Of a stretch of 64,000 bases of DNA, positions 39,286 through 63,554 are shown piece after piece (the first letter of the stretch is position 1; every line of letters begins with the position of its first letter). A program made the translations under genes and the position numbers. The stretch is from Mycobacterium sp. (GTDB taxonomy: Bacteria; Actinomycetota; Actinomycetes; Mycobacteriales; Mycobacteriaceae). The stretch covers positions 749-64,748 of the forward strand of contig DASRFZ010000189.1 of the NCBI GenBank assembly GCA_035651275.1. The letters are read 5' to 3'. The notes below the pieces were generated by a model that was not told where the DNA came from, ran no database searches, and saw nothing but the letters and a program-made list of their open reading frames with translations.

Positions 39286-39314
39286 GGGCCGATGCTACAG
39301 GTGCCGCCGCCCGG

Positions 39315-49399: not shown

Positions 49400-49428
49400 T
49401 CGTGCGTCTCCTGTGCCACTGTCCGGCA

Positions 49429-49592
49429 CGGGGACGACGACGCGCCGGTGCGCGAGCGCCGCGGTACCACCCCGCTTGCACACGCGTGTCGCGTGGCCGC
49501 TCAATACGGCTGTGACGGGCCTACCCGTTCGGTTCTACTTGGCCGCAAGGCTGTTCTTCCGAAGGCTCCCCGGTGATGGCCGGATCGATGCC
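49429..49592 (-). ncRNA. ileS translational T-box riboswitch (AUC specifier)
   Basis: Minus strand GGCATCGATCCGGCC-ATC-ACCGGGGAGCCTTCGGAAGAAC...AGTAGAACCGAACGGG...GGTGGTACCGCGG...GTCGTCCCCG; short stem I typical of actinobacterial ileS T-boxes. Confidence 0.93.
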
Positions 49593-49613: not shown

Positions 49614-50441
49614 ATGGAGCAGCGCACCCTCGAAGCGGTCATCTACGAGCGAGAGCCGCCGATCGCGCGGATCATCCTCAACCGCCCGGAGAAGGCCAAT
49701 ACCAAGGACGCGCAGTTGGTGCAGGAGGTGGACGCGTGCCTGCGCGAGGCAGACCGCGACGGTGAGATCAAGGTCGTCATCCTCAAGGCCAACGGCAAGG
49801 GCTTCTGCGGCGGACATGTGGCGCGCTGGGGGCCCGACGAAAACCCGTACCCGGATTTCGGCGACACGTTCGAGTCGCTGTACAAGGGCACCGCCGACCT
49901 GTTTTTGTGGCCGACGTTGTATCTGTGGGAATTCCCGAAGCCGACGATCTCGCAGATCCACGGCTACTGCATGGGCGGCGGCATCTACCTCGGGTTGCTG
50001 ACGGATTTCTGCGTGGCCTCCGATGACGCGTATTTCCAGATGCCGCTTGCCCAGAGCCTCGGCGAGCCCGGCGGCCACACGATGATCGAGCCCTGGCTGA
50101 TGATGAACTGGCATCGCGTCATGGACTGGCTTCTGTTGGCGCCCACGCTATCCGCCGCCGAAGCGTTGGAGTGGGGTCTTCTGAACAAGGTGGTTCCGCG
50201 CGATCAACTCGAGGACACCGTCGAGGAGATGGCCCGCAAGATCAGCCAGATTCCGTTGACGACGCTGATGGCGGTCAAGAACAACGTCAAGCGGGCGTGG
50301 GAGCTGATGGGTATGCGGGTGCACCTTCAGGTAAGCCACATCCTGACGAACATGGTCGGCGCAGCGTCCGATGTGCAGGCCCGCCGCGCGGAGCTCATCC
50401 AGTCGGGCCTGAAACCCCGCGATTTCGTCGAAGACCCCTAG
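49614..50441 (+). CDS. Crotonase/enoyl-CoA hydratase superfamily protein, non-canonical (EchA13-like)
   Basis: LNRPEKAN, GKGFCGGH, KPTISQIHGYCMGGG; lacks the usual catalytic Glu positions; leaderless ATG after TAGTCT. Confidence 0.85.
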   Translation: MEQRTLEAVIYEREPPIARIILNRPEKANTKDAQLVQEVDACLREADRDGEIKVVILKANGKGFCGGHVARWGPDENPYPDFGDTFESLYKGTADLFLWPTLYLWEFPKPTISQIHGYCMGGGIYLGLLTDFCVASDDAYFQMPLAQSLGEPGGHTMIEPWLMMNWHRVMDWLLLAPTLSAAEALEWGLLNKVVPRDQLEDTVEEMARKISQIPLTTLMAVKNNVKRAWELMGMRVHLQVSHILTNMVGAASDVQARRAELIQSGLKPRDFVEDP

Positions 50442-50443
50442 GC

Positions 50444-50492
50444 GATTTCGGTGCGTTTTCAGGCGCTCAGCGCCGGTTAGCGCACCGAAATC
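50444..50492. repeat. REP-like hairpin / bidirectional terminator between convergent genes
   Basis: gatttcggtgcg / cgcaccgaaatc, perfect 12-bp stem; inner GGCGC-TCA-GCGCC. Confidence 0.72.
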
Positions 50493-52155
50493 ACTCGCCG
50501 CGGGCCGCGTGGCGCGCTGCGACGTAGCCGAAAACCATCGTGTTCGCGATACTGCCGCCCGCCCCGAGGTAATGCCGTCCCATCACCGTCGCCGTGATGT
50601 TGCCCGTCGCGTAGAGGCCGTCGATCACCTTGTCGTTATCGCCGAGGACCTGTCCGTACTCGTTGGTGATCACTCCCCCGCATGTCCCGACGTCGGCCGG
50701 AAAGACGCGTGCGGCGTAGTACGGCGCGCGGTCAAGCGGGCCGAGCGCGGCGTTCGGCCGGTATCCCGGGTCGCCCAGGCAAATGTTGTAGGCCGATTGC
50801 CCGCGGCCGAAGTCGGGATCGAGGCCCTTGACGGCAAACTCGTTGAATCGTTGGACCGTCTGCTCCAAAGCCTCAGCGGGGACGTCGATTTGGCGCGCAA
50901 GATCGGCGACGGTGTCGGCACGCACGATCTCACCCCGTTCGATCACCTCGTCCGGCAGCCGACGCTTCTGTAGCGGGTTCGCCCCAGAGACGTATCGGCG
51001 AACATAACCCTCATCGAAGACCTGCCAGCACGGCACGGCCTTGTTGGCGTACATCGCCTTGCCGACTTCGACGTAGGAGTTCGACTCGTTGCAGAACCGC
51101 CGGCCGGTGCCGTCGACGTAGATGGCCCCCGGTCGCTGCCGCGCCTGGCCGACCGCACGGGCGCGGGGATCGGCCACGAAAACCGATGGGAGCCACCAGG
51201 CTTCGTCAAGCAGGTCGGTCTTCGCGCCCAGCCGCATCGCCGTCTGCAACACTTCACCCGTGTCGCCGGGGTTCGCAAGTGACCACTTTGCCTCGTTGGG
51301 CTGATCGCCGCTGTACCGACGGCGCATTTCCGCGTTGCGACTGAAACCGCCCGCCGCGAGCAACACCCCTTTGCGCGCTTCGATATTCAGCGAGGCATCG
51401 TTTCGAGTGACTCGCGCACCGACGACGCGACCATGCTCGACGATGAGATCGTCCATCGCGGCGCTCGTCCACACCGGAGGTGCGCCAGTGCAGTCGATCA
51501 GCACCTTCAGCATCTGACCGATTAGCGATGCGCCGTTGGTGAGGACCTGGCGCCGCCGGATCCGTGCTGCCCAGGTGCGCAGGAACACCCGCACCGCAAC
51601 GCCGAAAGCTCGTGGCGAGCGGTTGTAGTACTGCACCGAGCGCAGCTCGCTCGTTTTCACCACGAATCCGCGGTTCCAATTCTTGTCCATCGTCTGGACC
51701 CTGCCGCCCCAGTCCCCCAGTGGCGCCGCGTCGTACGGGATGCCCTCGACCGATCGGCCGGCCGCGTTGCCGCCCTTGTGGTTTGGGTAGTAGTCGGCGT
51801 AGCCGGGGCATCGGACCAGCCGAACACCTTTGCGCATAAGGAAGTCGATCATATCGCTGCCCGCGGTCAGGAACATCTCACGCCGCGGGGGCGACGATGC
51901 GGCACCGATGTCACCGACGACGTCGTCGAAGTACGCCAGACCGTCCTCGTGGGAATCGGGCACGCCCTCCGCCCGCATCAACGGGTTGTTCGGCAGCCAC
52001 ACCATGCCGCCCGACATTCCTGTTGCCCCACCGACGAGATCCTCCTTTTCGAGCACGAGGGGTTCGATCCCCGCGTCCAACGCGGCCAGCGCCGCAACCA
52101 TCCCGCCACCACCGCTGCCCACGATCAACAGATCGACGGACTTGTCCCAGTTCAT
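50491..52155 (-). CDS. kstD: 3-ketosteroid Delta1-dehydrogenase family flavoprotein
   Basis: GSGGGG, EK...GGATGMSGG..W.P, ADYY, NESNSY, YLGAG (positions matching the KstD catalytic Tyr/Gly); ATGA overlap with the Rieske gene. Confidence 0.75.
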   Translation of the reverse strand: MNWDKSVDLLIVGSGGGGMVAALAALDAGIEPLVLEKEDLVGGATGMSGGMVWLPNNPLMRAEGVPDSHEDGLAYFDDVVGDIGAASSPPRREMFLTAGSDMIDFLMRKGVRLVRCPGYADYYPNHKGGNAAGRSVEGIPYDAAPLGDWGGRVQTMDKNWNRGFVVKTSELRSVQYYNRSPRAFGVAVRVFLRTWAARIRRRQVLTNGASLIGQMLKVLIDCTGAPPVWTSAAMDDLIVEHGRVVGARVTRNDASLNIEARKGVLLAAGGFSRNAEMRRRYSGDQPNEAKWSLANPGDTGEVLQTAMRLGAKTDLLDEAWWLPSVFVADPRARAVGQARQRPGAIYVDGTGRRFCNESNSYVEVGKAMYANKAVPCWQVFDEGYVRRYVSGANPLQKRRLPDEVIERGEIVRADTVADLARQIDVPAEALEQTVQRFNEFAVKGLDPDFGRGQSAYNICLGDPGYRPNAALGPLDRAPYYAARVFPADVGTCGGVITNEYGQVLGDNDKVIDGLYATGNITATVMGRHYLGAGGSIANTMVFGYVAARHAARGE

Positions 52156-53513
52156 ATCGCCGCCACCCGTCGCGACAGACCGAGCTCGGCGACGGGCACG
52201 TCGATGGTGGTGTTGGTCTTCTGGATCGCACCGACCAGCGTGTCGTACGGCAGGCCTGCGAGAAATCCGTCCACGACCCGCTCGAAGTTCGAGATCAGTC
52301 CTTCGATCTGGTTCGACAACCGCATGTATTCGAATCCCTTGGCGTGCAAGCCTTTCTGCTGCCGGGGCAGGTTGGAGAAATCCTGCGCGGGGATCGTCGG
52401 CCAGCTCGGGTCGTCGGGGGCCACCGGCTCTGGCGGAGTGGGTTTTGACGGCGGCTGGTCCGACGGGAACCTGGTCAGCGACCACACTTCGAACAGCGTC
52501 TGCTCGGGACCCAACGGACGGATGCGGTACGACGCCGCACTGCTGTAGGTCGGCAGGATGAAGTAGTGCGGGAAGCAGAACCCGATCGGATCGGAGACCC
52601 CGCGACGATCAAGGTCATTCAGGTCGGGGAAGTCGCACCCGCGCGCGCGGTGCCACGCGGTAACCGCGTCGTTGACCGCGCTGCGCCACGCCGCCATCGC
52701 CTCGGTCGGGTCGTCGGGCAGCGAAATGTTCTGCAGCCCTTCGGCGATATGGACGTCGTTCGCGTGGGTCATGCCGCCCATCCCGGACCCCAGCGTCCGC
52801 ATGAAGTGAAGGCTGGTCTGCACGACCGGGTGCACCCGGGACGACTCCGGGCTGTGCGCCGACGGCAGCAGTTGCGGGTGGGTCTGCGGCACGTGGTAGC
52901 CCTCCATGAACGCCGCCGTCGCCAGCTTCCAATTCACTGGCAGCAGACACGATTTCCACCATTCGGTGTAGAGCTTGTCCACTTTCCACTCGTCGTGCCG
53001 TGACGCGAACGGGTCGATGCAGTCGCGCAGCGCGGGCGCGTCGGCGTCGAGGTTGATCCAGGCGCAGCCGCCCCACAGCTCGCATCGCACCGGCGCGAGC
53101 CCGAGATCGTCGGCGCACAAGTTGTTTTCGTCAAACACCTCGGGCCGCAGCACGAACGTGTTGGCGCCGTCGAGACCCCAGCACCATCCGTGGAACGGGC
53201 AGACGAAGCTGCGCCGGCTGCCGTGTCCCTCGACGAGTTTCATGCCCCGATGACGGCACGAGTTGTAGTACGCGCGCACGGTGGTGGCGTCGAGTCGCAC
53301 GACGATGACCGACTGGTCCAGAATCTCGTACTCCGCAAAGTCGCCGGGTTTCGGAATCTCCTCCAGCCGGCACGCCATCTGCCAGACGCGGGGCCAGAAC
53401 AGCTCGGTCTCCAGGTCGTAGAACTCGCGATCGAAGTAGCGCTGCTTGGGAATTCGGTCAGGAGTCTGCACGGCCCAGGGCACCGGTAGCGGTGTCCAAT
53501 TCACGTCAGTCAT
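52152..53513 (-). CDS. Rieske non-heme iron oxygenase alpha subunit
   Basis: NSCRHRG...CPFHGW Rieske ligands; EGYHVPQTH and QD mononuclear iron ligands. Confidence 0.9.
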   Translation of the reverse strand: MTDVNWTPLPVPWAVQTPDRIPKQRYFDREFYDLETELFWPRVWQMACRLEEIPKPGDFAEYEILDQSVIVVRLDATTVRAYYNSCRHRGMKLVEGHGSRRSFVCPFHGWCWGLDGANTFVLRPEVFDENNLCADDLGLAPVRCELWGGCAWINLDADAPALRDCIDPFASRHDEWKVDKLYTEWWKSCLLPVNWKLATAAFMEGYHVPQTHPQLLPSAHSPESSRVHPVVQTSLHFMRTLGSGMGGMTHANDVHIAEGLQNISLPDDPTEAMAAWRSAVNDAVTAWHRARGCDFPDLNDLDRRGVSDPIGFCFPHYFILPTYSSAASYRIRPLGPEQTLFEVWSLTRFPSDQPPSKPTPPEPVAPDDPSWPTIPAQDFSNLPRQQKGLHAKGFEYMRLSNQIEGLISNFERVVDGFLAGLPYDTLVGAIQKTNTTIDVPVAELGLSRRVAAI

Positions 53514-53530
53514 GTGGGTTCACGCTCCCC

Positions 53531-55045
53531 TCACAGGATTCGCGACGTCCGCTGATTCCAGTATCGATCGCGAATCCGCCTTTTGTAGAGCTTGCCGTTG
53601 GGATCGCGGGGCAGTTCGGCGTCGAAGTCAACCGTCCGCGGGCATTTGTACGTCGCGATGTGCGCGCGGCAGTAGTCGATGAGCTCGTCGGCCAGCTCCG
53701 GGCCGGGCTCGATGCCGTCGACTGGTTGCACGACCGCCTTCACCTCTTCGCCGAATTCATCGTTGGGAACCCCGAACACCGCGGCGTCCACCAGCTTGGG
53801 GTGCATGACGAGAAGGTTCTCCACCTCTTGCGGGTAGATGTTGACCCCGCCGGAGACGATCATGAACGTCGAGCGGTCGGTCAGGTACAGATAGCCGTCG
53901 TGGTCCACATAGCCGATGTCGCCGAGTGTCCGCCAGCCTTTTTCGTTGGCGACGGACGCGGTCTTCTCGGGATCCTTGAAGTACTCGAAGTCGGGGCCGC
54001 CTTCGAAGAACAACTCACCGGACTGGCCGACCGGAAGCTCCTCGCCGCCCTCCCCGACGACATGCACCGTGGTGAGAGGCTTGCCTACCGACCCGGGGTG
54101 GGCGAGCCACTCTTCGGGCCCGATCGTCGAACCTGCGAATCCCTCAGTGCCGCCGTAATACTCGTATAGAATCGGCCCGAACCAGTCCATCATCCGCTGT
54201 TTGACGGCGACGGGGCACGGTGCGGCAGCGTGGATGACGCATTCGAGGCTGGATACGTCATAACGCTCGCGGACAGCCTCGGGAAGCTTGAGCATCCGGA
54301 CGAACATCGTCGGGACGAACTGCGCGTGGGTGACGCGATGCTGCTCGATCAGTGCCAGTACCGCTCCGGCGTCGAACTTGCGCATCGTGATCGCGGTGGC
54401 TCCGACGCGATGCACGGCCATCGTGTAGTTCACGCCGGCCGCGTGGTACAGCGGCGCCGGCGAGAGGTAAACACTGGAGTCGGTCATCTTGTAGTGGTGC
54501 TGCAAGGCCATTTCCAGCACGTACTGTGCCCACGAGCCGTTGCCGTCGATCGGAAGCGGCCGGCGCACCGCCTTCGGCCGGCCCGTGGTGCCCGACGAGT
54601 ACAGCATCTCGGAGCCGTCGGACACGGGCGGCGGGTCGCCGGCCGCGGCCAGGGCGTCGGCGTACGGGCGCCAACCCGACACCTCGCCGCCGACCGCGAC
54701 GTGGACGTCGACGCCCCGGCTCGTCGCCATGAGGTGAGATGCCAAGTCGACCATCGAGGCGTCGACGAACACCGCCCTCGCCTCGGAGTCGTCGACGATG
54801 TACGCGACCTCCTCTGGCGTGAAGTGGGTATTCACCGCGCTGTAGTAAAGACCGGAAAGCTGGCAGCCCCAGGTGATTTCGAAGAACTCTTGGCAGTTCG
54901 GCAGCACCAGCGCCACCCCGTCGCCGCGCCGAAGGCCCGCGTCATGCAACACAGCCGCCACCCGTTGGCTTCGGGCGTACAGATCACCGTAGGTAATGGT
55001 CTCGCCGCCCGCGACGACGAGCGCCGGAGAGTCCGGCGTCCTCAT
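53531..55045 (-). CDS. Acyl-CoA synthetase (FadD4-like AMP-binding)
   Basis: YSSGTTGRPK, PLYHAAG, YYGGTE, TLGDIG, SGGVNIYP, PNGKLYK. Confidence 0.9.
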   Translation of the reverse strand: MRTPDSPALVVAGGETITYGDLYARSQRVAAVLHDAGLRRGDGVALVLPNCQEFFEITWGCQLSGLYYSAVNTHFTPEEVAYIVDDSEARAVFVDASMVDLASHLMATSRGVDVHVAVGGEVSGWRPYADALAAAGDPPPVSDGSEMLYSSGTTGRPKAVRRPLPIDGNGSWAQYVLEMALQHHYKMTDSSVYLSPAPLYHAAGVNYTMAVHRVGATAITMRKFDAGAVLALIEQHRVTHAQFVPTMFVRMLKLPEAVRERYDVSSLECVIHAAAPCPVAVKQRMMDWFGPILYEYYGGTEGFAGSTIGPEEWLAHPGSVGKPLTTVHVVGEGGEELPVGQSGELFFEGGPDFEYFKDPEKTASVANEKGWRTLGDIGYVDHDGYLYLTDRSTFMIVSGGVNIYPQEVENLLVMHPKLVDAAVFGVPNDEFGEEVKAVVQPVDGIEPGPELADELIDYCRAHIATYKCPRTVDFDAELPRDPNGKLYKRRIRDRYWNQRTSRIL

Positions 55046-55096
55046 CGCATGGTCGGCAATGTTAATTTCTGCTCCTCGTGTCCGCGGCCTTCACGA

Positions 55097-55960
55097 CTAC
55101 GAACCGTCGGTGGACGCCGCAGCCGCACTCTGCCGTTGCGCCATCTCCGATGGCAGGATCTTGTCCTTGAACACCCGCTGGATCAGCGCCTGCACGTCGG
55201 AGCTGAGTGACGCGAGCGCGACCAAATCGTTGGAGCTCTGCCAGTGCACCCGCATGCCCATCAGCTCCCACGCGCGCTTCAGGTTCGCCTTCGTCGCCAA
55301 CAGCGTCGTCAGTGGCGCCTGCGCGATGTGGCGGGCGATCGCCTCGACTCGCGTGTCGAGGTCTTCACGTTTGACCACCTCGTTGACCAGACCGACCTCC
55401 AGAGCCTTCTTCGCGTCGATCACCTCGGCGAGATATAGGTAGTAGGCCGCGCGCCGCCAGTTCATGAAAACCCATGGCTCGATCGAACATTCACCCGACG
55501 GCATCCCGAAGCCCTGCAGCGGCGGGTACTGGAAATACGCGTCCTCCGATGCGATCACGATGTCGGTGGTCAACCCGTAGTGCGTGCCGCCGCCGACGCA
55601 GTAGCCATGCACCTGCGCGATCGTCGGCTTGGAGAACTCCCACAGGTTCAGGATCGGTTTGACGAACAAGTCGGTCTGCGGTTTCCACGGCGTGCCAGTG
55701 TGTTTGAAGCCCTCGACGAACTCCGGATAGTCGACCGCGTTGTTGCCGATCGCGTGTCCGGAGCAGAACCCCTTGCCGTTGGCCTTGATCACCAGCACCT
55801 TGATGTCGTAGTCGCGGTCGGCGTCGATCAATGCGGCATCGATCTCCTCGACCTGCTTTTGGTCCTGAGCGTTCGCCTTCTCCGGCCAGTTCAGCGTGAT
55901 CCGCGCGATCGGCCCTTCTTTTTCGTAGATGATCCGCTCACGCGTCTCGTTGCAGTCCAC
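55097..55960 (-). CDS. Crotonase/enoyl-CoA hydratase superfamily protein, paralog of 49614-50441
   Basis: LNWPEKAN, GKGFCSGH, KPTIAQVHGYCVGGG, IEPW, KRAWELMGMRVH; GAGGAGG RBS. Confidence 0.85.
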   Translation of the reverse strand: MDCNETRERIIYEKEGPIARITLNWPEKANAQDQKQVEEIDAALIDADRDYDIKVLVIKANGKGFCSGHAIGNNAVDYPEFVEGFKHTGTPWKPQTDLFVKPILNLWEFSKPTIAQVHGYCVGGGTHYGLTTDIVIASEDAYFQYPPLQGFGMPSGECSIEPWVFMNWRRAAYYLYLAEVIDAKKALEVGLVNEVVKREDLDTRVEAIARHIAQAPLTTLLATKANLKRAWELMGMRVHWQSSNDLVALASLSSDVQALIQRVFKDKILPSEMAQRQSAAAASTDGS

Positions 55961-55979
55961 AGGTCCTCCTCGTGATGGG

Positions 55980-56216
55980 TTATGACGTGATGACGCCGAT
56001 TTCGGCGCCGATGTCGTAGGTCGTGCCGACTTCGCCGGTCCATTGGACCGTGCCCGATGCACCCGCTTCGATCTCCTGTTCCACCTTCTCTGTTGCGATC
56101 ACGTAGATCGGCGTGCCCTCGTCGACGTGCTGGCCACCGTCGACGAGGATGTCGACGAGCTCGGCTTCGGACACCGCGACCGAGACACGCGGAATGCGAA
56201 TGATGAAGTCAGCCAC
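55980..56216 (-). CDS. Stand-alone lipoyl carrier domain protein (78 aa)
   Basis: IRIPRVSVAVSEAEL...IATEKVEQEIEAGASG; TEK lipoylation motif, not the biotinyl AMK. Confidence 0.85.
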   Translation of the reverse strand: MADFIIRIPRVSVAVSEAELVDILVDGGQHVDEGTPIYVIATEKVEQEIEAGASGTVQWTGEVGTTYDIGAEIGVITS

Positions 56217-57207
56217 GCGATCCCGTTCTGTCAAGGGTACGTTGGACGGCCTCGATGATCCGCGTGGCCGACGGGTAGATCTGCGCCTCAAGCAACGGAG
56301 CAGCCGGCGCGGGAACGAACCGCGCCCCGACGCGTTCGACCGGCGCGGCGAGCTCGCCGAACAACTCGGACTGCAGGATTGCCGCGACCTCTGCGCCCGG
56401 GCCGGCGAATTCCACCGCGTCGTGAACCACTACTGCCCGTCGCGTTCGGCCGACCGACTCCACCAATGTGTCGACGTCGAGCGGCACGAGCGTACGCAGG
56501 TCGACGACTTCGGCGCTCACTCCCTGCTCGGCCAGCGTGGCCGCGGCTGCCAACGCGTCGTGCACGCTGCGCCCGTAGCCGACGAGCGTCACGTCGGTGC
56601 CGGCCCGCTTGACGTCCGCCTGGCCCAGCGGGATCGAGAAGCCGGGATCGGTTGGCACCAAACCTTTTTGACCCTGCAAGCGGATGGTCTCGACGAACAG
56701 GCACGGGTCCTCGTCGAAGATCGCCGACGTCAGCAGGCCCTTACCATCGCGTGGGGTAGACGGGACGACGACCTTCATCCCGGGGATGTGCATGAACCAC
56801 GCTTCGAGTGTCTGCGAGTGGGTTGCCCCGGTGGCGAGGCCGCCGTACACCTGAGTGCGCACCGTGATCGGTGCCGTCGTGCGGCCCGCGGTCATGAACC
56901 GCAACTTGGCCGCGTTATTGATGATCTGGTCGGCGGCGATCCCGATGAAGTCCATGATCATGATCTCGGCCACCGGCAGCAGGCCGTCGATCGCGGCGCC
57001 GATCGCCGCCCCGACGATCGCGGCCTCGGAGATGGGCGTGTCGAGCACCCGGTCGGCGCCGTACTTCGTCGATAGTCCCGCGGTCGGACCCGACGCGCCG
57101 GGATCGGCGATGTCCTCCCCGAGCAGGAACACCCGGTCGTCGGCAGCCAGCGCGGCGTCCAGCGCGAAGTTGAGCGCCTCGCGCATCGTCATTTCCCTCT
57201 CGTCCAC
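56209..57207 (-). CDS. TPP-dependent 2-oxoacid/acetoin dehydrogenase E1 beta subunit
   Basis: LLGEDI, DTPISEAAIVG, EIMIMDF, THSQ, VVDLRTLVPLD. Confidence 0.92.
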   Translation of the reverse strand: MDEREMTMREALNFALDAALAADDRVFLLGEDIADPGASGPTAGLSTKYGADRVLDTPISEAAIVGAAIGAAIDGLLPVAEIMIMDFIGIAADQIINNAAKLRFMTAGRTTAPITVRTQVYGGLATGATHSQTLEAWFMHIPGMKVVVPSTPRDGKGLLTSAIFDEDPCLFVETIRLQGQKGLVPTDPGFSIPLGQADVKRAGTDVTLVGYGRSVHDALAAAATLAEQGVSAEVVDLRTLVPLDVDTLVESVGRTRRAVVVHDAVEFAGPGAEVAAILQSELFGELAAPVERVGARFVPAPAAPLLEAQIYPSATRIIEAVQRTLDRTGSRG

Positions 57208-57216
57208 GTCCGCGCC

Positions 57217-58200
57217 TCAGACCGGGTACCGAATCGCGGTGGCGTACACATCTTTTGACAACTCGTCGACGGACGGCGGGTCGGCAGCCATCACCGTCTT
57301 CAACGCGGCTTCGACGCGGCTCAGCGCGTCGTTCTCGACGCGGGAAAGCTCGCCCTCGTCGGCCAAACCCGCCTCCAACAAATGGCTGCGGAACCGCGGC
57401 ACCGGGTCGGCCGCCACCGCAGCTGCCAGCTGGTCGGCCGGAATGTAGGGCGTGCGGTCGCCGAAGTAGTGGCCGCGGAAGCGGAACGTCACGCACTCGA
57501 TAAGCGTCGGGCCGTCCCCACCGCGCGCGCGGTCCAGAGCCCCGCCGAGCGCCGACATCACGGCCAGCGGGTCGTTGCCGTCGACACGCACCCCCGGCAT
57601 GCCGTATCCGGCAGCGCGCTCGGCGACGTGTTCGAGCTTCATCGTGTGCCGCGTCGGCGTCATCTCCGCGTACTGATTGTTCTGGCATACCAACACGATT
57701 GGCAGGTTCCACAGCGCGCCCATGTTCGCGGCCTCGTGGAACGAGCCGGTGTTGGTGGCGCCGTCGCCGAAGCTGACCACCGTGACGCGGTCGAGCCCCT
57801 TGCGTTGGGCCGCCATCGCCAAACCGACGCCCACCGGCGGGCCCGCGCCGACGATCCCGGTGGACAGCATCACGCCCTTCGCGGGGTTGGCGATGTGCAT
57901 CGTGCCGCCCTTGCCGCGGCCGGCACCGACGGTGCGGCCCATCATTTCGCCGTAGATCTCCTCGAGCGGCACCCCTTTGCCTATGAGGTCGTGCAAACCG
58001 CGGTAGGTCGTCACCAATTGGTCGTCGTCGCGAAGCGACACGCCCATCGCGGCTGCGATGGCTTCCTGGCCGCGCGACGGCCAGTACACGCACATGAACT
58101 CGCCGGTGCCGATGCCCTTGCTCAACCTGTCGTCGGCCGCCTTCATCAACACCATCAGCGCGTAGATGCGCTTCTGGACGTCGGCGGGCACGTCAGTCAT
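57217..58200 (-). CDS. TPP-dependent 2-oxoacid/acetoin dehydrogenase E1 alpha subunit
   Basis: GQEA, TYRG, GKGGTMH, FGDGATNTGSFHE..N...QNNQY TPP motif, RFRGH. Confidence 0.92.
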   Translation of the reverse strand: MTDVPADVQKRIYALMVLMKAADDRLSKGIGTGEFMCVYWPSRGQEAIAAAMGVSLRDDDQLVTTYRGLHDLIGKGVPLEEIYGEMMGRTVGAGRGKGGTMHIANPAKGVMLSTGIVGAGPPVGVGLAMAAQRKGLDRVTVVSFGDGATNTGSFHEAANMGALWNLPIVLVCQNNQYAEMTPTRHTMKLEHVAERAAGYGMPGVRVDGNDPLAVMSALGGALDRARGGDGPTLIECVTFRFRGHYFGDRTPYIPADQLAAAVAADPVPRFRSHLLEAGLADEGELSRVENDALSRVEAALKTVMAADPPSVDELSKDVYATAIRYPV

Positions 58201-58520
58201 GGCTGGTACGAACCGATCTCGCGGTACACCTTCGGGATCGGCGGCGGCGAGTCCATGCTCAAATACTGCAGCGACGACATCTTCCCGCTTCTGCCCAACT
58301 CGCCCATCCGCCCTACCACCGCGTCGAGGTCGTCGCAGTCGAGTTCGTAGATCGCGACAAACGGACCCGTTCCGTCAGTTGGGGCGAAGCGGCGCGCCGA
58401 CACGACACCCTCGACCGAGCAGATCTCGGCGAGATGCGTGTCGTTGTACCACGCGTGGTACTCGGCTTCCTTGTCCGACGACACCGGCATCGTCTCGAGA
58501 TAGATGATCCCTCTGGGCAT
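58197..58520 (-). CDS. EthD/DUF4286-like dimeric alpha-beta barrel protein
   Basis: EAEYHAWYNDTHL, VSARRF, AIYEL. Confidence 0.75.
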   Translation of the reverse strand: MPRGIIYLETMPVSSDKEAEYHAWYNDTHLAEICSVEGVVSARRFAPTDGTGPFVAIYELDCDDLDAVVGRMGELGRSGKMSSLQYLSMDSPPPIPKVYREIGSYQP

Positions 58521-58535
58521 CTCAGCCGACCTCTC

Positions 58536-59402
58536 TCATCCACCCGACCACGGTTTGACTTTGAGAAAGCCACCGCCGTCCACGCGCAGCTGCTGGCCGG
58601 TGATGTAGCGAGCCGCGTCGCTGGCGAGGAACAACACCGCCTCGCTGATGTCCTCGGGTTCGACATACGGGATCGGCATCGCCTGCACCACAGGGAACAC
58701 CGGCTCGGCGTCCTCGCGAGTCGGGTTCTTCAAGTCGGGCCGAAACGCCCTGTACATCGGTGCGCTGTGCAACATGTCGGTGTTGACGTTCGTCGGATGG
58801 ACCGCGTTCATCCGGATGGAGAACGGCGCAAGCGCTAGAGCGAAGTCGTTGACATAGTGCGCCCCAGCCAGTTTCGCGAACGCGTACCCCGCGCCGCCGG
58901 GGCCGCCGTCGATCCCGGTGGTGTTCATCGACGACATGAACGCCGCGTTAGATCCCGTCACGATGATCGACGCGCCGGCGTGTAGGTGCTTGAGACTCGC
59001 GTGCACGAGATTGAGCACGCCGACGAGGTCGACGTCAACGGCGTCGGCGAAGGCCTGGGGCGGCAGACCGGCAGTGAGCGGGCAGATGCCCGCATTGGCG
59101 ACGACGATGTCGAGTTGGCCGAATTCGGCCACCCCCCGGTCGATCGCCTGGGACAGCGCCGCACGATCGCGGACGTCGGCGATCTCGGTGAACGCGCGCT
59201 GGCCCTCTTTCTCGACAAGCCGCGCCGTTTCGTCGAGATCCTCCGGCCGCGCCAGCGGGTACTCGTTGGTTTCGATATCCGCGCACAGGTCCACGGCAAT
59301 GATGTCCGCGCCCTCGGCGGCGAGCAGCCGAGCATGCGAACGGCCTTGGCCGCGCGCGGCGCCGCTGATCAATGCGACCTTGCCTGTCACCCTGCCCATC
59401 AA
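58536..59402 (-). CDS. Mycofactocin-coupled-type SDR oxidoreductase
   Basis: GKVALISGAARGQGRSHA, IAVDLC plus insertion loop YPLARPEDL, NAG, Y.FAK, HPTNVNT. Confidence 0.82.
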   Translation of the reverse strand: MMGRVTGKVALISGAARGQGRSHARLLAAEGADIIAVDLCADIETNEYPLARPEDLDETARLVEKEGQRAFTEIADVRDRAALSQAIDRGVAEFGQLDIVVANAGICPLTAGLPPQAFADAVDVDLVGVLNLVHASLKHLHAGASIIVTGSNAAFMSSMNTTGIDGGPGGAGYAFAKLAGAHYVNDFALALAPFSIRMNAVHPTNVNTDMLHSAPMYRAFRPDLKNPTREDAEPVFPVVQAMPIPYVEPEDISEAVLFLASDAARYITGQQLRVDGGGFLKVKPWSGG

Positions 59403-59423
59403 ATGGCCCTCTCTCCCGCCTTG

Positions 59424-60563
59424 TCAGACTGTCAATACCAGCGAACCACATTGCGGGCCAAAGCCATTCGCGACCACTGCGACCTCGGCATCGGGAACCT
59501 GACGCGGCCCACACTCGCCGCGCAGCTGTGCCACGCCTTCGGCCAGAAAGCCCAGCCCGTGCAGCCGGCCCTCGGCAAGCTGTCCGCCGCTCGTGTTCAG
59601 CGGCAGCACACCACCCGGTCCGATGGTCTTGCCGCCGTCGACCCAGTCGCCGAACTCCCCAATGCCGCACATGCCCATGGCTTCGACCCAGGACATCGCG
59701 ATGTGCGTGAATCCGTCGTAGAGCTCGGCGACGTCGACGTCGGCCGCGGTCACCGAGGACCGCTTCCACATCGTGTCGGCACAGGGCCGCGTGCCGCCGA
59801 ACAAGAAGTCGTCGGCGTAGGTGAAATCCGGTTTCCAGCCGGTGCCCATCGCGATCGCATCGATGAAGACGGGCCGCTTGGGGGTGTCGGCGGCGCGCTC
59901 CGGGCTGGTGATGACGACAGCGCAGGCACCCGTCACCGGGTAGTCGCAGTCGAGCAGCCGAAGAGGCTCGGAGACATAGCGCGAACCCAGATAGTCGTCG
60001 ATCGTCAGCGGTTCCCGCATGACCGCGCGCTCGTTGAGCGACGACCACCGTCGCCCGTTCAGCGAGATCTGCCCGTAGTCTTCCTCTTTCGTGCCCAGCG
60101 TGGCCATGCGGCGCTGCTTTTTCATCCCCATCACCGGGATGATCCCGCCTGCGATGCCGTACGGGAACTCGAATTGCCACGGGCCCGCCGCGCGCGGCAG
60201 CGCCCGCCCGCTCATCTGGCCCCACTCCCGGGTCACCGAACGCACGACAAGCGCGACGTCGCACGTTCCGGACAGCACCGCCATGTGGGCGCCCAGCGCC
60301 GCCGCCAGACCAGACGGCCCACGCGGCGTGTAGTCGCCGTAGACCACCAAGTTCTCGATGCCGACCAGACGTGCGATGTCCATCGCCTGCTCGTCGCCGG
60401 CGTACTCGAACACCGCGTCGATGTCGCTCACGGCTAATCCTGCGTCAGCGATGGCGATGCGAGACGCCTCTACGGCCAGCGGCCGACCGTCTATGCCCTT
60501 ATCGCGGAGAATTTTCGAGTAGCCGACACCCACTACGGCTGACCGCCTGGCTGACCCGTTCAT
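59424..60563 (-). CDS. SCP2/Ltp2-type thiolase-fold protein
   Basis: VVGVG, CDYPVTGA, AELYDGFT, NTSGGQLAEG..HG; no Cys at the usual thiolase nucleophile position. Confidence 0.82.
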   Translation of the reverse strand: MNGSARRSAVVGVGYSKILRDKGIDGRPLAVEASRIAIADAGLAVSDIDAVFEYAGDEQAMDIARLVGIENLVVYGDYTPRGPSGLAAALGAHMAVLSGTCDVALVVRSVTREWGQMSGRALPRAAGPWQFEFPYGIAGGIIPVMGMKKQRRMATLGTKEEDYGQISLNGRRWSSLNERAVMREPLTIDDYLGSRYVSEPLRLLDCDYPVTGACAVVITSPERAADTPKRPVFIDAIAMGTGWKPDFTYADDFLFGGTRPCADTMWKRSSVTAADVDVAELYDGFTHIAMSWVEAMGMCGIGEFGDWVDGGKTIGPGGVLPLNTSGGQLAEGRLHGLGFLAEGVAQLRGECGPRQVPDAEVAVVANGFGPQCGSLVLTV

Positions 60564-60610
60564 CCATCTCTTCCATGAAACTGCGCGGTGGCAGTGGAGG
60601 TCACGGTATG

Positions 60611-60650
60611 CCGCACAGTATCTAAAATACCTAAAATAGAAAAGACTGCG
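60611..60650. promoter_or_regulatory. AT-rich divergent control region with the direct repeat CTAAAATA x2
   Basis: ctaaaata at 60622-60629 and 60631-60638, flanked by imperfect ccgcacagt/actgcgg. Confidence 0.45.
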
Positions 60651-60688
60651 GACCCGGGGCGGCGGTGGGGTTCGAGTATTGTCCGCAT

Positions 60689-61846
60689 GTGGACTTCTCG
60701 TACCCGCCACAGGTAGAAGAGTTCCGCACTGCATTGCGCGCGTGGCTAGCCGCCAACCTCACAGACGACGTGGTCGCCGCGGGCCGGCGGCGCGGCCGCG
60801 ACGATGCGGCGTTCGAAACACTGCGCGCCTGGGATGCGGCGATGGCTGACGCGGGGTGGGCGGCGGTGTCCTGGCCGCGGGAGTACGGTGGCCGCGGCGC
60901 GACCCTGCTCGAACAGGTCGCCTACGCGGAAGAGACCACCCGCGCGCGATCTCCGTTGCCGCTCAACGTGATCGGGATGACCAACATCGCGCCGGCGATC
61001 ATGCATTACGGGACCGACAAACAGAAGAGCGACCTGCTCCCCCGGATGATGCGCGCCGACGACATCTGGTGCCAGGGGATGTCAGAGCCCGAGGCCGGGT
61101 CCGATCTCGCGTCGCTGCGAACCCGTGCGGTGCGCGACGGCACCGACTTCGTCGTCAACGGACAGAAGATCTGGACGTCGCTGGGTCATCGCGCCGACTG
61201 GTGCCAGCTGTATGTGCGGACAGACCCAAATGCCCCTAAGCACAAGGGCATTTCGTGCCTCATCGTCGATATGACGCTGCCCGGTATCGAAGTATGGCCC
61301 ATCCGCACGCTCACTGGCGACGCCGATTTCGCGGAAGTGTTCTTCACCGACGTGCGGGTGCCGGCCGACGCGCTGTTGGGACCGCTCGACGGCGGATGGG
61401 GCGTAGCGACCACCACCCTGAGTCATGAACGTGCCGGGGCAGCAAGGCTTTACGCAGAGATGCAGCTGCGACTGCAGGATCTTGCCGCCGATCTAGCCGA
61501 CACTGAGACCGACGGCCACCCGGCCGTCGAGGACGCCGTGACGTTACGACGGCTGGGCGAACTAGCGGTGCGCATCAAGTATCTCGAAGTGTTGTGCCTG
61601 CGATCGATCTCGCTGGCGCAGAACGGCGGTGATCCGTTCGGCTCGGCCAGCGTTGCGAAGACGGTGTGGGGCGAGGTGGGACAGGGACTGGCCGCGCTTG
61701 CCTTCGACACACTCGGCGACCGGGAAGCCGACGGCCGGTGGACGCGCGACCGATTGTCTACGCGGTCGCTGACGATCGCCGGCGGCACCACTCAGATCAA
61801 CAAGAACATCACCGCTGCGCGTGTCCTCGGGTTGCCCCGCCAATGA
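60689..61846 (+). CDS. Acyl-CoA dehydrogenase, alpha (catalytic) subunit of the heteromeric type
   Basis: WPREYGGRG, WCQGMSEPEAGSDL, NGQKIWTS, TLSHER, TIAGGT; leaderless GTG after TATTGT. Confidence 0.9.
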   Translation: MDFSYPPQVEEFRTALRAWLAANLTDDVVAAGRRRGRDDAAFETLRAWDAAMADAGWAAVSWPREYGGRGATLLEQVAYAEETTRARSPLPLNVIGMTNIAPAIMHYGTDKQKSDLLPRMMRADDIWCQGMSEPEAGSDLASLRTRAVRDGTDFVVNGQKIWTSLGHRADWCQLYVRTDPNAPKHKGISCLIVDMTLPGIEVWPIRTLTGDADFAEVFFTDVRVPADALLGPLDGGWGVATTTLSHERAGAARLYAEMQLRLQDLAADLADTETDGHPAVEDAVTLRRLGELAVRIKYLEVLCLRSISLAQNGGDPFGSASVAKTVWGEVGQGLAALAFDTLGDREADGRWTRDRLSTRSLTIAGGTTQINKNITAARVLGLPRQ

Positions 61847-62931
61847 ATCTCGAGCTGACCGACGAGCAGGTCGCGCTGCGCGACACCGTGAGGCGATTCC
61901 TTGCCGAAAAGGCAAGCGTGACAGCACATGTACGGCCGATGCTCGACGATCCGACCGGCACCACTGCCGACGTCTGGCGCGGTCTTGCCGAACTCGGTGC
62001 GACGGGAGTGCTCGTCCCGCCGGACTACGGCGGTGCCGGCATGACGATGGTCGAGGCCGGGATCGTCGCCGAGGAGCTCGGCGCGGCCCTGCACCCGGGA
62101 CCGTGGTTGTCCTGCGCGGTCGCAGCAGTACGCGCGGTGACGCGGACCGGCGCGGCGGAAAAGGCCGGCGCTCTGCTGAGCGGCATTGCCGACGGGTCGA
62201 CGATCGCGACGGTCGGCCCGTTGCGCGGCCCCCGGCCGGGCGCAGTCGAACGCAGTGACGGAGTCGTGCTGCGCGGAACGCTCTCGGCGATGCCCGACGC
62301 CGCAGCGGCGAACGTGATGATGGTCCTCGCCGAAGACGGGGACGGGGCCGCGCTCTCCACCGTCGAGACGGCAGTCTGCCATCTGGGCGACCAGTCGGGC
62401 GGTGTCGACCCCACCCGCAAGCGGTTCGCGGTCACGCTCGACGACTCACCGGCGCAGCGCCTCGCATCGGTGTCAGCCGAGCAATGCCAAGCGCTGGTCG
62501 ACGACGTGCTGGTCGCCCATGCGGCCGACGCTCTCGGGGCCGCAGAGGCAGTGCTGACGCTGGCCGTGGAGTACGCCAAGACGCGGAGACAATTCGGTCA
62601 CCCGATCGGCAGTTTTCAAGCCGTGCAACACCTTTGCGTGGACATGTACGAAGCGATCGAGCTCGCCCGCAGCGGCGTCGTCCATGCCCTGTGGGCCGCA
62701 GATGCCGCGGATCCAGCCGAGCGACACCTCGCTGCAATTCGGGCGAAAGCGTTCGCGGGGCAACTGACTGCCGTCGGCGACACCGCGATCCAAGTGTTCG
62801 GCGGCGTCGGGTACACCTGGGAGCACGACGCTCATCTGTACCTCAAGCGGTTGCTGGGCTGGAGCGCCTATCTCGGCGGGCCCGACCGATACCTCCAGGA
62901 AGTCGGTCGCGAACTCGTGTCCGGGCTCTAA
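61843..62931 (+). CDS. Acyl-CoA dehydrogenase, beta subunit of the heteromeric type
   Basis: LTDEQ, RRQFGHPIGSFQAVQH, FGGVGYTWEH; lacks the SEP/GSD FAD loop; ATGA overlap with the alpha subunit. Confidence 0.88.
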   Translation: MNLELTDEQVALRDTVRRFLAEKASVTAHVRPMLDDPTGTTADVWRGLAELGATGVLVPPDYGGAGMTMVEAGIVAEELGAALHPGPWLSCAVAAVRAVTRTGAAEKAGALLSGIADGSTIATVGPLRGPRPGAVERSDGVVLRGTLSAMPDAAAANVMMVLAEDGDGAALSTVETAVCHLGDQSGGVDPTRKRFAVTLDDSPAQRLASVSAEQCQALVDDVLVAHAADALGAAEAVLTLAVEYAKTRRQFGHPIGSFQAVQHLCVDMYEAIELARSGVVHALWAADAADPAERHLAAIRAKAFAGQLTAVGDTAIQVFGGVGYTWEHDAHLYLKRLLGWSAYLGGPDRYLQEVGRELVSGL

Positions 62932-63554
62932 CTGACCATCACCATTTCGGCGGCATCACGCAGCATCGGCGCCGCTTCCGACGTCAGTTCGATGAGCGCG
63001 AGAGGGAATTGCTCGGCGAGCTCATCGACGGTGCTTCGCTCCAGCCGGCGGGTGTCGTACCACCAATCCATCTGCAGCACCCCACCCGATCGGTACACCC
63101 GCAGCTCGAGCGCGTGGCCATCACTCGGCAGCATTTGCCGACGCATCGGCTCGTGCGCGCCGAGCAGATAGGAAATCGCGACGTCGGAGGCTGCCGACGT
63201 CAGGCGGCCGACTCTCCGCCGCGCGCCAGTCAGCGCGCGGTGGGCAGCGCGCACCGCTTTGGTGGCGCTCACTTCCCCTACGGTCGTGCAGGCCAGGGTC
63301 ACCGTCGCTTCGCCCTCGCCGAGAAGGTCCACCGACATGTCTCCAGTGCCGATGGTTCGCGCGATGGTCCGGGCGACCGCCGCGAGGACGAGCTCCTCGA
63401 CGGTCAGCCTCAAGTATTGGCGAGCCTCGTCGAGCTCCGTGGTCAACATGCTGGTCAGCGGAGCTGACAGGATTGCGAGATCGTCGGGGCGCGGGGGCCC
63501 GTCAACGTCGTAGTCGAGCATTTGCAGAGTTGCTCTCCCCAAGTTTGTGGACAT
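62928..63554 (-). CDS. Stand-alone protein resembling the C-terminal lobe of an NRPS/PKS condensation domain
   Basis: LAAVARTIAR, VSVDL-like strand, ELRVYRSGGVLQMDWWYDTRRLERSTVDELAEQF; no HHxxxDG; start uncertain (63554 or 63521). Confidence 0.6.
   Translation of the reverse strand: MSTNLGRATLQMLDYDVDGPPRPDDLAILSAPLTSMLTTELDEARQYLRLTVEELVLAAVARTIARTIGTGDMSVDLLGEGEATVTLACTTVGEVSATKAVRAAHRALTGARRRVGRLTSAASDVAISYLLGAHEPMRRQMLPSDGHALELRVYRSGGVLQMDWWYDTRRLERSTVDELAEQFPLALIELTSEAAPMLRDAAEMVMVS

Follow-up and report, generated by a model that had tools for sequence, protein, structure and literature searches.

A cluster of 13 catabolic genes from Mycobacterium sp. combines a KstD-like flavoenzyme and a Rieske oxygenase with the E1alpha and E1beta subunits of a thiamine diphosphate (ThDP)-dependent dehydrogenase and a free lipoyl carrier. 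The cluster occupies positions 49614-62931 of a 64,000-nucleotide stretch of contig DASRFZ010000189.1 (assembly GCA_035651275.1), which is of soil-metagenome origin and is called the window below, and it adjoins ileS. It is one conserved catabolic operon rather than a chance neighborhood: many genomes share this gene set, and chance falls far short of explaining the arrangement. Directly observed are the genes themselves, their conservation, and the motifs for catalysis and cofactors in their products. The enzyme families are known ones, in a combination without description in the literature searched. An earlier sequence-only reading of the window had not recognized the set as a described pathway, and a full-text literature search likewise returned no paper describing it; the papers on Rhodococcus ruber Chol-4 and on tomatine in Sphingobium do not mention it.

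Gene families were assigned with Pfam and NCBIfam, and start positions were refined by homologue alignments and start codons. All 13 genes that the sequence-only reading had listed were found on the same strands and at the same coordinates, as follows (SDR, short-chain dehydrogenase/reductase; ACAD, acyl-CoA dehydrogenase).

49614-50441, plus strand: ech2, crotonase 2 (Pfam ECH_1)
50491-52155, minus strand: KstD-like flavoprotein (FAD_binding_2; NCBIfam NF009478)
52152-53513, minus strand: Rieske alpha subunit (Rieske and Ring_hydroxyl_A)
53531-55045, minus strand: acyl-CoA ligase, FadD4-like (AMP-binding and AMP-binding_C)
55097-55960, minus strand: ech1, crotonase 1 (ECH_1), directly after the lipoyl carrier
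55980-56216, minus strand: lipoyl-only protein of 78 residues (Biotin_lipoyl)
56209-57207, minus strand: E1beta (Transket_pyr and Transketolase_C)
57217-58200, minus strand: E1alpha (E1_dh)
58197-58520, minus strand: EthD-like protein of 107 residues (by fold prediction; Pfam gives only a weak DUF4286 match)
58536-59399, minus strand: SDR (TIGR03971, mycofactocin-coupled)
59424-60563, minus strand: Ltp/SCP2-type thiolase-like protein (Thiolase_C_1)
60665 or 60689 to 61846, plus strand: ACAD large subunit, PimC-like (all three ACAD domains)
61843-62931, plus strand: ACAD small subunit, PimD/IpdE2-like (Acyl-CoA_dh_N and Acyl-CoA_dh_1)

Ten of these genes form a minus-strand run from 60563 down to 50491. 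The ACAD pair diverges from this operon, and ech2 occupies the interval between kstD and ileS, converging with the former and diverging from the latter. The tight or overlapping junctions of the sequence-only reading are borne out, with overlaps of 4 to 8 nucleotides and gaps of 9 to 51. ATGA overlaps join ethD to the E1alpha gene, the Rieske gene to kstD, and acadL to acadS; the E1beta and lipoyl genes overlap by 8 nucleotides, and the remaining junctions are the gaps. The third-position GC content of the cluster reading frames is 0.74-0.89.

Conservation was examined in one genome per species with an alignment to the Rieske protein, and relatives were found in at least 583 genome stretches. 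The best 80 of these (Rieske identity 75-87%, all from Mycobacterium or Mycolicibacterium) were used for a tblastn census. Its counts are minimum values, since contig ends or the 10-kb flank limit truncate several loci. The Rieske gene is found in all 80 loci, kstD in 79, ech2 in 75, E1alpha and E1beta in 70 each, the lipoyl gene and ech1 in 66 each, and the SDR gene in 65. A type III CoA-transferase gene follows (62), then the ligase (51), the EthD-like gene (36), the small and large ACAD subunits (27 and 26, respectively) and ltp (4), and the cluster lies beside ileS in two. The core is made up of the genes for the SDR, E1alpha, E1beta, the lipoyl carrier, ech1, the Rieske and KstD-like proteins and the divergent ech2, each in 65-80 of the 80 loci. 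Therefore the set, which the sequence-only reading would have dropped had it not been conserved in other genomes, is conserved within Mycobacteriaceae, and also outside the family. The single protein clusters to which the core genes belong contain hundreds of soil-metagenome members.

Two architectures predominate. In the first, A, a minus-strand CoA-transferase gene is followed by the SDR, in some cases EthD-like, E1alpha, E1beta, lipoyl, ech1, ligase, Rieske and kstD genes and then a minus-strand ech2. In the second, B, the Rieske and kstD genes come first, followed by ech2, CoA-transferase, small ACAD and large ACAD genes on the minus strand and then by an optional ltp, the SDR, EthD-like, E1alpha, E1beta, lipoyl and ech1 genes. 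That the modules remain together across the two orders points to functional coupling. The variant in the window is uncommon: it has an intact ltp and the ACAD pair but no CoA-transferase. The transferase, a protein of 406 residues (for example, L085 13876-15096 and L086 2917-4137), has no tblastn match anywhere in the 64-kb window; it belongs to the cluster in 62 of the 80 relatives.

The cluster is far more widespread than the sequence-only reading assumed, and it is not specific to actinobacteria, given that Alpha- and Betaproteobacteria also carry it. Distant copies were found by searching plasmids with the E1alpha protein. On plasmid pl1 of Paraburkholderia sprentiae WSM5005 the same set lies in one co-directional run, with identities of 25-57% over the set and of 25-53% for the genes listed next, and plasmids of Azospirillum and Streptomyces carry most of the set. 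The order there is Rieske (33%), KstD-like (41%), E1alpha (47%), E1beta (53%), lipoyl (34%) and a stand-alone E2 catalytic domain, followed by CoA ligase (32%), crotonase (33%), enoyl-CoA hydratase (ECH, 26%), two ACADs (35% and 25%), an SDR and an NTF2 protein. The run is flanked by DUF1329/YCF48/MMPL genes, both alpha and beta subunits of an electron transfer flavoprotein, a 2Fe-2S ferredoxin, an FAD reductase and a TetR regulator. Plasmid pAB510b of Azospirillum sp. B510 carries a TetR gene followed by Rieske, E1alpha, E1beta, lipoyl, AMP-ligase and KstD-like genes, an old yellow enzyme (OYE), three SDRs and an NTF2 protein, and the divergent genes encode a rubredoxin, an esterase, a cytochrome P450 and a GMC oxidoreductase. 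A Streptomyces plasmid carries genes for a CoA-transferase, ECH, amidohydrolase, TetR, Rieske protein, ferredoxin, FAD protein, E1alpha, E1beta, lipoyl carrier and patatin, with a ligase, a second KstD-like gene, an ACAD and an SDR nearby. Neither an E2 core nor an E3 is found in the mycobacterial, Azospirillum or Streptomyces clusters.

Parts of the set also occur separately. The Rieske/KstD pair is shared across actinobacterial classes at 65-74% identity. In Acidimicrobiales the pair, as part of the EthD-like/Rieske/KstD trio, lacks E1 genes and adjoins a GMC oxidoreductase, a 3beta-hydroxysteroid dehydrogenase (3beta-HSD)/epimerase, an SDR, a P450 and an SBP_bac_3 ABC transporter. Paraburkholderia PGU19 and Diaphorobacter have the E1alpha, E1beta, lipoyl and E2 core genes next to DUF1302, DUF1329 and resistance-nodulation-division (RND) transporter genes but lack a Rieske gene there. 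Clusters for the catabolism of phenanthrene and of steroids include DUF1329 genes, and p-cresol induces one such gene (bioRxiv 10.1101/072470); DUF1329 and DUF1302 are also mentioned in a paper on an RND transporter in monoterpene metabolism (PMC6394551). A Rieske match on a Sphingobium yanoikuyae plasmid has an uninformative context. In the Sphingobium 'Tom' strains E1alpha, E1beta and crotonase genes lie near KstD-like genes, and the region viewed contains neither a lipoyl nor a Rieske gene.

A gene of the Amidohydro_2 family (PF04909, a decarboxylase/hydratase family) recurs near the Rieske and KstD genes in loci L081, L083, L087 and L089, in the P0092 and P0106 contexts and in 13 type-B mycobacterial loci. 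The same contexts also carry P450, NTF2/SnoaL and phosphotransferase (APH/EcKL) genes. These neighbors may be further pathway members that are missing from the window.

The KstD-like protein has both the FAD-binding fold with an N-terminal GxGxxG motif (FAD_binding_2, PF00890, 3e-74 over residues 10-538) and full-length similarity to KstD. It matches the 3-oxosteroid 1-dehydrogenase of PDB entry 7p18, which we take to be AcmB, at 5e-97 over residues 8-554, and the 3-ketosteroid dehydrogenase of 4c3x, presumably KstD1, at 3e-82. The equivalents of Tyr119, Tyr318, Tyr487 and Gly491, which we take to be the KstD catalytic residues in KstD1 numbering, are conserved; in the 4c3x alignment DYY, NESNSY and RHY-LGAG stand at these sites. 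Homologues from Azospirillum, Acidimicrobiales and L087 retain the same four residues. The protein scores 806 bits against NF009478 (PRK12844, '3-ketosteroid-delta-1-dehydrogenase'), above the cutoff of 789, and 505 bits against a second 3-oxosteroid 1-dehydrogenase equivalog, NF005882 (PRK07843), below the cutoff of 788; the latter is presumably the group of the M. tuberculosis KstD. Both the residues and the equivalog score agree with the KstD-family membership first proposed. The enzyme would be expected to desaturate the alpha,beta position beside a ketone. The ChcC1 and ChcC2 models match it at 273-308 bits, and relatives of KstD are also active on simple cyclohexanones. On two metagenome contigs, gene calls of 736 (P0042) and 537 residues (P0088) fuse FAD_binding_2 with Rieske and Ring_hydroxyl_A domains; these probably result from read-through or a frameshift at the ATGA junction, a real fusion being the alternative.

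The Rieske protein has the sequence motifs of the alpha-only CntA/GbcA/Stc2 type. The Rieske motif CXH-X16-CXXH (C86/H88/C105/H108), the iron ligands H207 and H212 and the bridging E204 are all invariant. The bridge glutamate lies in 'MEGYH', where CntA has the aligned 'MECYH' (Glu) and an arene dioxygenase 'GDGYH' (Asp), and scans of the window found no Ring_hydroxyl_B gene for a beta subunit. The catalytic domain is PF00848 Ring_hydroxyl_A, and no KshA chain is among the 31 PDB matches at E<=1e-5. Similarity to solved or curated families is strong only over residues 20-220, with a single insignificant C-terminal stretch otherwise. GbcA is the best NCBIfam match, with a score of 102 bits (cutoff 670) confined to residues 21-218; CntA matches at 6e-25 over the same residues only, and the protein is not equivalent to either. 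The Rieske domain is equally similar to CntA and to arene dioxygenases (E 6e-25 to 4e-28). The protein represents a distinct alpha-only subfamily and is probably a monooxygenase. An AlphaFold2 model built from 17 sequences, all at least 63% identical, reached a pLDDT of 45.7, too low for a fold search.

The protein of 107 residues has no Pfam match above cutoff (DUF4286 is weak, at E 0.0017), and NCBI labels one homologue as 'DUF4286 family'. The AlphaFold2 model (pLDDT 77.5) predicts a dimeric alpha+beta barrel. Foldseek places the EthD-like structure 3bf4 at the top, at only E 3e-4 and a TM score of 0.5-0.6, followed by ABM monooxygenases. In locus L087 the EthD-like gene directly precedes the Rieske and KstD genes, with no E1 genes. 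This protein, with its predicted EthD/ABM-like fold, is likely to be a partner of the Rieske/KstD pair.

The E1 proteins form a heteromeric ThDP-dependent pair as in the acetoin dehydrogenase system. E1alpha matches E1_dh at 1e-75 and has the ThDP motif GDG-X26-NN in its translation, and the name given by JGI to close homologues, based on KEGG orthology, is 'acetoin:DCPIP oxidoreductase subunit alpha' (acoA). E1beta scores 313 bits against PRK09212, the pyruvate dehydrogenase (PDH) E1beta subfamily, for which the cutoff is 321, and is 49-57% identical to the proteobacterial and Streptomyces copies. The closest solved E1 structures are those of PDH and of branched-chain 2-oxo-acid dehydrogenase (BCKDH). 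The carrier of 78 residues is a lipoyl domain alone (Biotin_lipoyl, 6e-09) with no E2 catalytic domain, and the best NCBIfam match is to the N-terminus of the acetoin dehydrogenase E2, AcoC (7e-10). The lysine of 'ATEKVEQEIEA' is invariant in 67 lipoyl sequences and is kept in Azospirillum, Streptomyces and Paraburkholderia. An SDR of the butanediol/carveol dehydrogenase type upstream of E1 is a further Aco-like signal. A biosynthetic role as a donor of C2 units, as for the tetrahydroisoquinoline antibiotics, was rejected, with no genes for nonribosomal peptide or polyketide synthases nearby. The E1 on pRHL3 of Rhodococcus jostii RHA1 (40% identity) was set aside as a different system, part of a complete E1/E2/E3 complex.

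The SDR belongs to mycofactocin-coupled SDR subfamily 1 (TIGR03971, 335 bits against a cutoff of 300) and matches PDB 3pxx, 'carveol dehydrogenase', at 8e-106 over residues 2-281. The ligase scores 621 bits against FadD4 (NF038341), below the cutoff of 850; in Azospirillum and P. sprentiae a homologue comes after the lipoyl gene or the E2 gene.

The two crotonases are 52% identical. For ech1 (ECH_1, 6e-30), GGGTH and YPPL are invariant in 46 orthologues, and the PDB ranking is equidistant from hydroxycinnamoyl-CoA hydratase-lyase, MenB, 6-oxocamphor hydrolase and plain hydratases; therefore it does not discriminate between a hydratase, a hydratase-lyase, a MenB-type enzyme and a beta-diketone hydrolase. 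For ech2 (ECH_1, 6e-32; best NCBIfam match PRK08290, below cutoff), GGGIY and FQMPL (MPLA) are invariant among orthologues. In rat ECH the motifs with the catalytic glutamates are, we presume, GGGxE and PE, and both crotonases carry other residues there. That both are atypical and appear to be without both canonical glutamates is a lead. At 88-95% identity across the 80 species, ech2 is the best-conserved protein, above the Rieske, KstD, ligase and E1 proteins, which suggests a tightly constrained role, possibly in a complex.

The accessory proteins are related to those of steroid degradation without being equivalent to them. The Ltp matches Thiolase_C_1 at 2e-30 and PRK07855, 'lipid-transfer protein', below cutoff, and the window has no gene for a DUF35 partner of the ChsH2 type such as goes with an Ltp2-type steroid aldolase or SCP2 thiolase. 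The ACADs are a coupled pair in which one subunit lacks the middle domain, as in the alpha2beta2 enzymes ChsE, IpdE and PimCD. The large subunit scores 232 bits against TIGR03204 (pimC_large, cutoff 624); the small subunit has no match to the middle domain (PF02770) and scores 150 bits against IpdE2 (cutoff 450) and 138 against PimD (cutoff 653). Neither is equivalent to a characterized steroid ACAD. The sequence-only reading had taken KstD, the thiolase-like protein and the ACAD pair as hallmarks of steroid degradation; KstD is indeed core, but the Ltp (4 of 80 loci) and the alpha/beta ACAD pair (about 27 of 80) are not.

Relics of ltp are found upstream of the SDR gene in other loci (L003, L006, L019, L031, L052 and others), as 5' or 3' remnants comprising the leader, the first ~90 nucleotides and/or the last ~60-100. 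Given that fragments persist where the gene is gone, ltp was taken to be ancestral and in the course of loss by internal deletion in most species. The window looks to have kept the ancestral, intact gene, which appears to be decaying elsewhere.

A substrate and a route can be proposed from these parts. It could well be, although we stop short of calling it probable, that the substrate of the operon is an alicyclic compound, oxygenated and hydrophobic (steroid- or terpenoid-like), which bears or yields a carboxyl group. The mycofactocin-coupled SDR would oxidize a hydroxyl to a ketone, and the KstD-family flavoenzyme would desaturate beside it. The alpha-only Rieske monooxygenase, with its EthD/ABM-fold partner, would then add a hydroxyl. 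The acetoin-dehydrogenase-like ThDP E1alpha/E1beta would break the C-C bond by the carbonyl of the resulting alpha-hydroxyketone, or alternatively of a 2-oxo acid, and the acyl half would move onto the free 78-residue lipoyl carrier. The acids would be processed in the form of CoA esters, a task for the ligase (in most relatives a CoA-transferase), both atypical crotonases and the ACAD pair, with the Ltp-type enzyme also taking part in the window genome. The Rieske reductase, the E2 acyltransferase core and E3 would be supplied from elsewhere in the genome. The order of the steps, the acyloin chemistry and the class of substrate are what we infer. A hydrophobic alicyclic substrate is favored because of the KstD membership, the GMC, 3beta-HSD, P450, OYE and NTF2 neighbors, and the DUF1302, DUF1329 and RND genes of the proteobacterial versions.

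A more far-reaching reading is an undescribed catabolic route that crosses phyla. It is somewhat unlikely, in our judgment, that a new Rieske hydroxylase/KstD pair makes an alpha-hydroxyketone on the ring or side chain of a steroid or terpenoid, which the acetoin-dehydrogenase-like ThDP E1 and the lone lipoyl carrier then cleave oxidatively at a C-C bond, with a mycofactocin-dependent dehydrogenase feeding the mycobacterial version. If true, ThDP/lipoyl-dependent cleavage would be an alternative to ring opening by Baeyer-Villiger or meta-cleavage chemistry.

Several observations weigh against the proposed route. The Rieske and KstD genes, with or without the EthD-like gene, also occur without E1 genes in loci L081 and L087, and in the actinobacterium of L087 the EthD-like/Rieske/KstD trio is 71-74% identical. 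Therefore the two halves can work apart. The SBP_bac_3 transporter in Acidimicrobiales and the creatinase-like genes in L087 hint at small, polar substrates. The sequence of E1 fits acyloin cleavage and 2-oxo-acid decarboxylation alike. Paraburkholderia has the E2 core and the CoA ligase together, so the ligase is no simple substitute for E2. The atypical character of the crotonases is a lead from comparison with the rat ECH motifs. Finally, no RNA runs containing the window sequence were found; the runs that contain it are all DNA metagenomes.

Other explanations were weighed against these data. The cluster might serve to degrade a steroid other than cholesterol, such as a pregnane or corticosteroid; E1alpha/E1beta would then cleave a 17-hydroxy-20-keto acyloin to a 17-ketosteroid and acetyl-lipoyl, with KstD acting on ring A. 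This is unlikely, although with a real chance of being right. The structures nearest to the KstD-like protein, 7p18 and 4c3x, are 3-oxosteroid 1-dehydrogenases, the distant loci have GMC oxidoreductase, 3beta-HSD-like, P450 and NTF2 neighbors, and acyloin chemistry would suit a 17-hydroxy-20-ketone. DesAB of Clostridium scindens, a transketolase-type enzyme, is a precedent for ThDP-dependent cleavage of a steroid side chain; the side-chain cleavage activity of this organism is described in PMC3735941. However, the KstR/KstR2 operators are absent from the 64-kb window, the Rieske protein is not KshA-like, a C21 side-chain scheme leaves the ligase, crotonases, CoA-transferase and ACADs without a role, the Ltp and alpha/beta ACAD genes of steroid type are accessory, and relatives of KstD (ChcC1/ChcC2) are active on simple cyclohexanones. 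The missing operators, the accessory genes and the cyclohexanone-active relatives, together with the polar-solute transporters, argue against a firm call of steroid, and the steroid substrate of the sequence-only reading is plausible but unproven. Alternatively, the substrate would be small and polar and either cyclic or N-methylated, for instance a betaine, a cyclic amine or a ketone resembling a cyclitol, and the Rieske protein would work like the demethylase-type monooxygenases CntA, GbcA and Stc2. The Rieske domain is as near to CntA as to arene dioxygenases and has the CntA glutamate bridge, GbcA is the top NCBIfam match, the Acidimicrobiales Rieske gene lies beside an SBP_bac_3 transporter, and L087 has creatinase/M24 genes. 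Yet the 102 bits for GbcA fall far below the cutoff of 670, the C-terminal half bears no relation to it, the proteobacterial versions travel with the DUF1302, DUF1329 and RND companions of hydrophobic-substrate clusters, the ligase, crotonases and ACADs point to a fatty-acid-like CoA ester, and KstD chemistry requires a ketone. We regard this as quite unlikely.

The E1 module could also be an ordinary 2-oxo-acid dehydrogenase that acts on a later 2-oxo acid of the pathway and cleaves no acyloin. The PDH and BCKDH structures are the closest, the E1beta score of 313 bits is near the PDH cutoff of 321, and in Paraburkholderia and Diaphorobacter an E2 catalytic domain comes right after the lipoyl gene, as in a normal complex. 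Against that stand the AcoC match of the lipoyl protein and the automatic acoA annotation of homologues, the lack of an E2 core and E3 in the mycobacterial, Azospirillum and Streptomyces clusters, and the lack of an evident enzyme in the cluster to form a 2-oxo acid, and we think such a role improbable, if by no means negligible. Alternatively, the cluster would be a mosaic of unrelated adjacent modules: an acetoin or 2-oxo-acid dehydrogenase, beta-oxidation genes and an orphan Rieske/KstD pair. The lone Rieske/KstD/EthD trio of L081 and L087 would fit this, as would Paraburkholderia PGU19 and Diaphorobacter, where no Rieske gene accompanies the E1alpha-E1beta-lipoyl-E2 set. But the modules stay adjacent through two rearrangements in 65-70 of the 80 mycobacterial species, three other phyla or classes have them interleaved within a single operon, and the ATGA overlap of ethD and the E1alpha gene couples translation across a module border. 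We regard a mosaic as very improbable.

The cluster resembles four known systems, KstD/KshA, Aco, the steroid ring and side-chain steps, and limonene/carveol degradation, and is a member of none of them; a KshA-type domain, an E2 core with E3, equivalog-level scores and a DUF35 partner were all sought and not found. As in KstD and KshA, which open the ring in the 9,10-seco steroid pathway, a KstD-family enzyme goes with a Rieske oxygenase, here by translational coupling. Unlike KshA, to which it has no match, the Rieske protein of the cluster has a Ring_hydroxyl_A domain and a CntA-like glutamate bridge, and the KstD-like protein falls in PRK12844 rather than PRK07843. KshB, HsaA-D and KstR operators are absent from the cluster and the window.

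The likeness to the Aco system (AcoA, AcoB, AcoC and AcoL with butanediol dehydrogenase) lies in the run of SDR, E1alpha, E1beta and lipoyl genes, in the ThDP motif and in the lipoyl lysine. In contrast to that system, the lipoyl protein of the cluster has no acyltransferase domain, no E3 is adjacent, the module lies among Rieske, KstD, ligase and crotonase genes, and the SDR is a nicotinoprotein of the mycofactocin-coupled type. In this context acetoin itself is unlikely to be the substrate.

The ligase, the coupled ACAD pair, the crotonases and the Ltp-type protein recall the CoA-dependent steps for the steroid side chain and for the C and D rings (methylhexahydroindanedione propionate, HIP), which involve FadD3, ChsE/IpdE, EchA19/EchA20 and Ltp2. 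However, the equivalog scores are far below cutoff (IpdE2 150/450, EchA19 105/400, FadD3 family 236/657), the cluster has no DUF35/ChsH partner, and the Ltp and ACADs are accessory. In the bile-salt side-chain cluster of Sphingobium sp. Chol11, with the SclA ligase and the Scd4AB ACADs, the Rieske protein Nov2c228 has been proposed to hydroxylate in CoA-dependent degradation (bioRxiv 10.1101/2021.06.24.449856). It offers a conceptual precedent, given the shared CoA ligase, alpha/beta ACAD pair and Rieske monooxygenase. Unlike the present cluster, that of Chol11 has a KshA homologue as its Rieske protein, has an amidase and lacks E1, lipoyl and KstD genes, and the two pathways differ.

In the limonene/carveol pathway of Rhodococcus erythropolis DCL14, the diol or carveol dehydrogenase LimC acts before a Baeyer-Villiger ring opening. 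The SDR of the cluster is in the 'carveol dehydrogenase' subfamily, and the proposed logic of ring alpha-hydroxyketone, C-C cleavage and CoA activation is similar. In contrast, the cluster has no Baeyer-Villiger monooxygenase, epoxide hydrolase or LimB, and we know of no ThDP/lipoyl-dependent cleavage in the limonene/carveol pathway.

The core genes are very common and span Actinomycetota and Alpha- and Betaproteobacteria, yet no substrate or paper was found for them. If the proposed route is true, it would add ThDP/lipoyl-dependent C-C cleavage to alicyclic and steroid catabolism, give a physiological partner to the orphan KstD paralogue group PRK12844 and to a new Rieske subfamily, and provide a concrete metabolic role for a mycofactocin-coupled SDR. 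Cultivable and genetically tractable carriers exist in P. sprentiae, Azospirillum sp. B510 and Mycolicibacterium tusciae.

No regulator gene is found in the window cluster. An AT-rich element, TATCTAAAATACCTAAAATAGAAAAG (60610-60646, no strand assigned), lies between ltp and acadL in this genome of 66% GC. Many of the 80 loci, of both architectures, have a related 'ATTTTAG(G/A)TA..TAGCTAC' at the corresponding place in the divergent promoter, and it is kept whichever gene, acadL or CoA-transferase, faces the operon. The element is a candidate operator or promoter, to judge by its position and conservation. The motifs TnnAACnnGTTnnA and AnCAAGnnCTTGnT, which we take to be the KstR and KstR2 operator consensus, have no matches in the 64 kb, and scans for sigma-70 promoters and terminators found no more than expected at random.

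Housekeeping genes make up the remainder of the window, with hisD, hisB, nadA, nadC, bioB, ilvA, dnaE1, lspA and a glucose-6-phosphate dehydrogenase gene; genes of the alpha-amylase family, a DinB-type polymerase and aminotransferases of class III and class I/II, bioA/bioF-like by position, are also present. Therefore the cluster lies at the edge of core synteny, in line with the sequence-only reading. The gene for ileS (46262-49504, minus strand, by Pfam scan) is indeed adjacent in the window, but in relatives the adjacency recurs in just two of the 80 loci. The description of the pathway as self-contained proved wrong. The 64-kb window has no Rieske ferredoxin or reductase, ring-cleaving extradiol dioxygenase or hydrolase, and no 2-oxoacid_dh (E2 core) or dihydrolipoyl dehydrogenase (E3) was found among the window reading frames scanned. 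Recent horizontal transfer was rejected: the GC content is 0.657 in the cluster and 0.667 elsewhere in the window, and mobile-element genes do not flank the cluster.

At the far edge of the cluster lies an open reading frame (ORF) of 230 residues (62928-63620, minus strand) with no Pfam or NCBIfam match. Copies of 49-50% identity lie beside acadS only in L001 and L028, the two closest relatives, and its membership in the cluster is uncertain. A second edge ORF (63617-63922, minus strand) also has no family match. In ~16-20 of loci L001-L080, adjacent ORFs of 285 and 235 residues recur 4-5 kb beyond ech2, the second with 'VCTLCSCYP', presumably the metal-binding motif of nitrile hydratase alpha; they may be unrelated neighbors. 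Elsewhere in the window, a gene at 37915-39294 (minus strand) encodes a Ser/Thr protein kinase domain fused to a C-terminal domain like the SecDF P1 head, and it adjoins a sigma-70/DUF6596 gene and a YCII gene.

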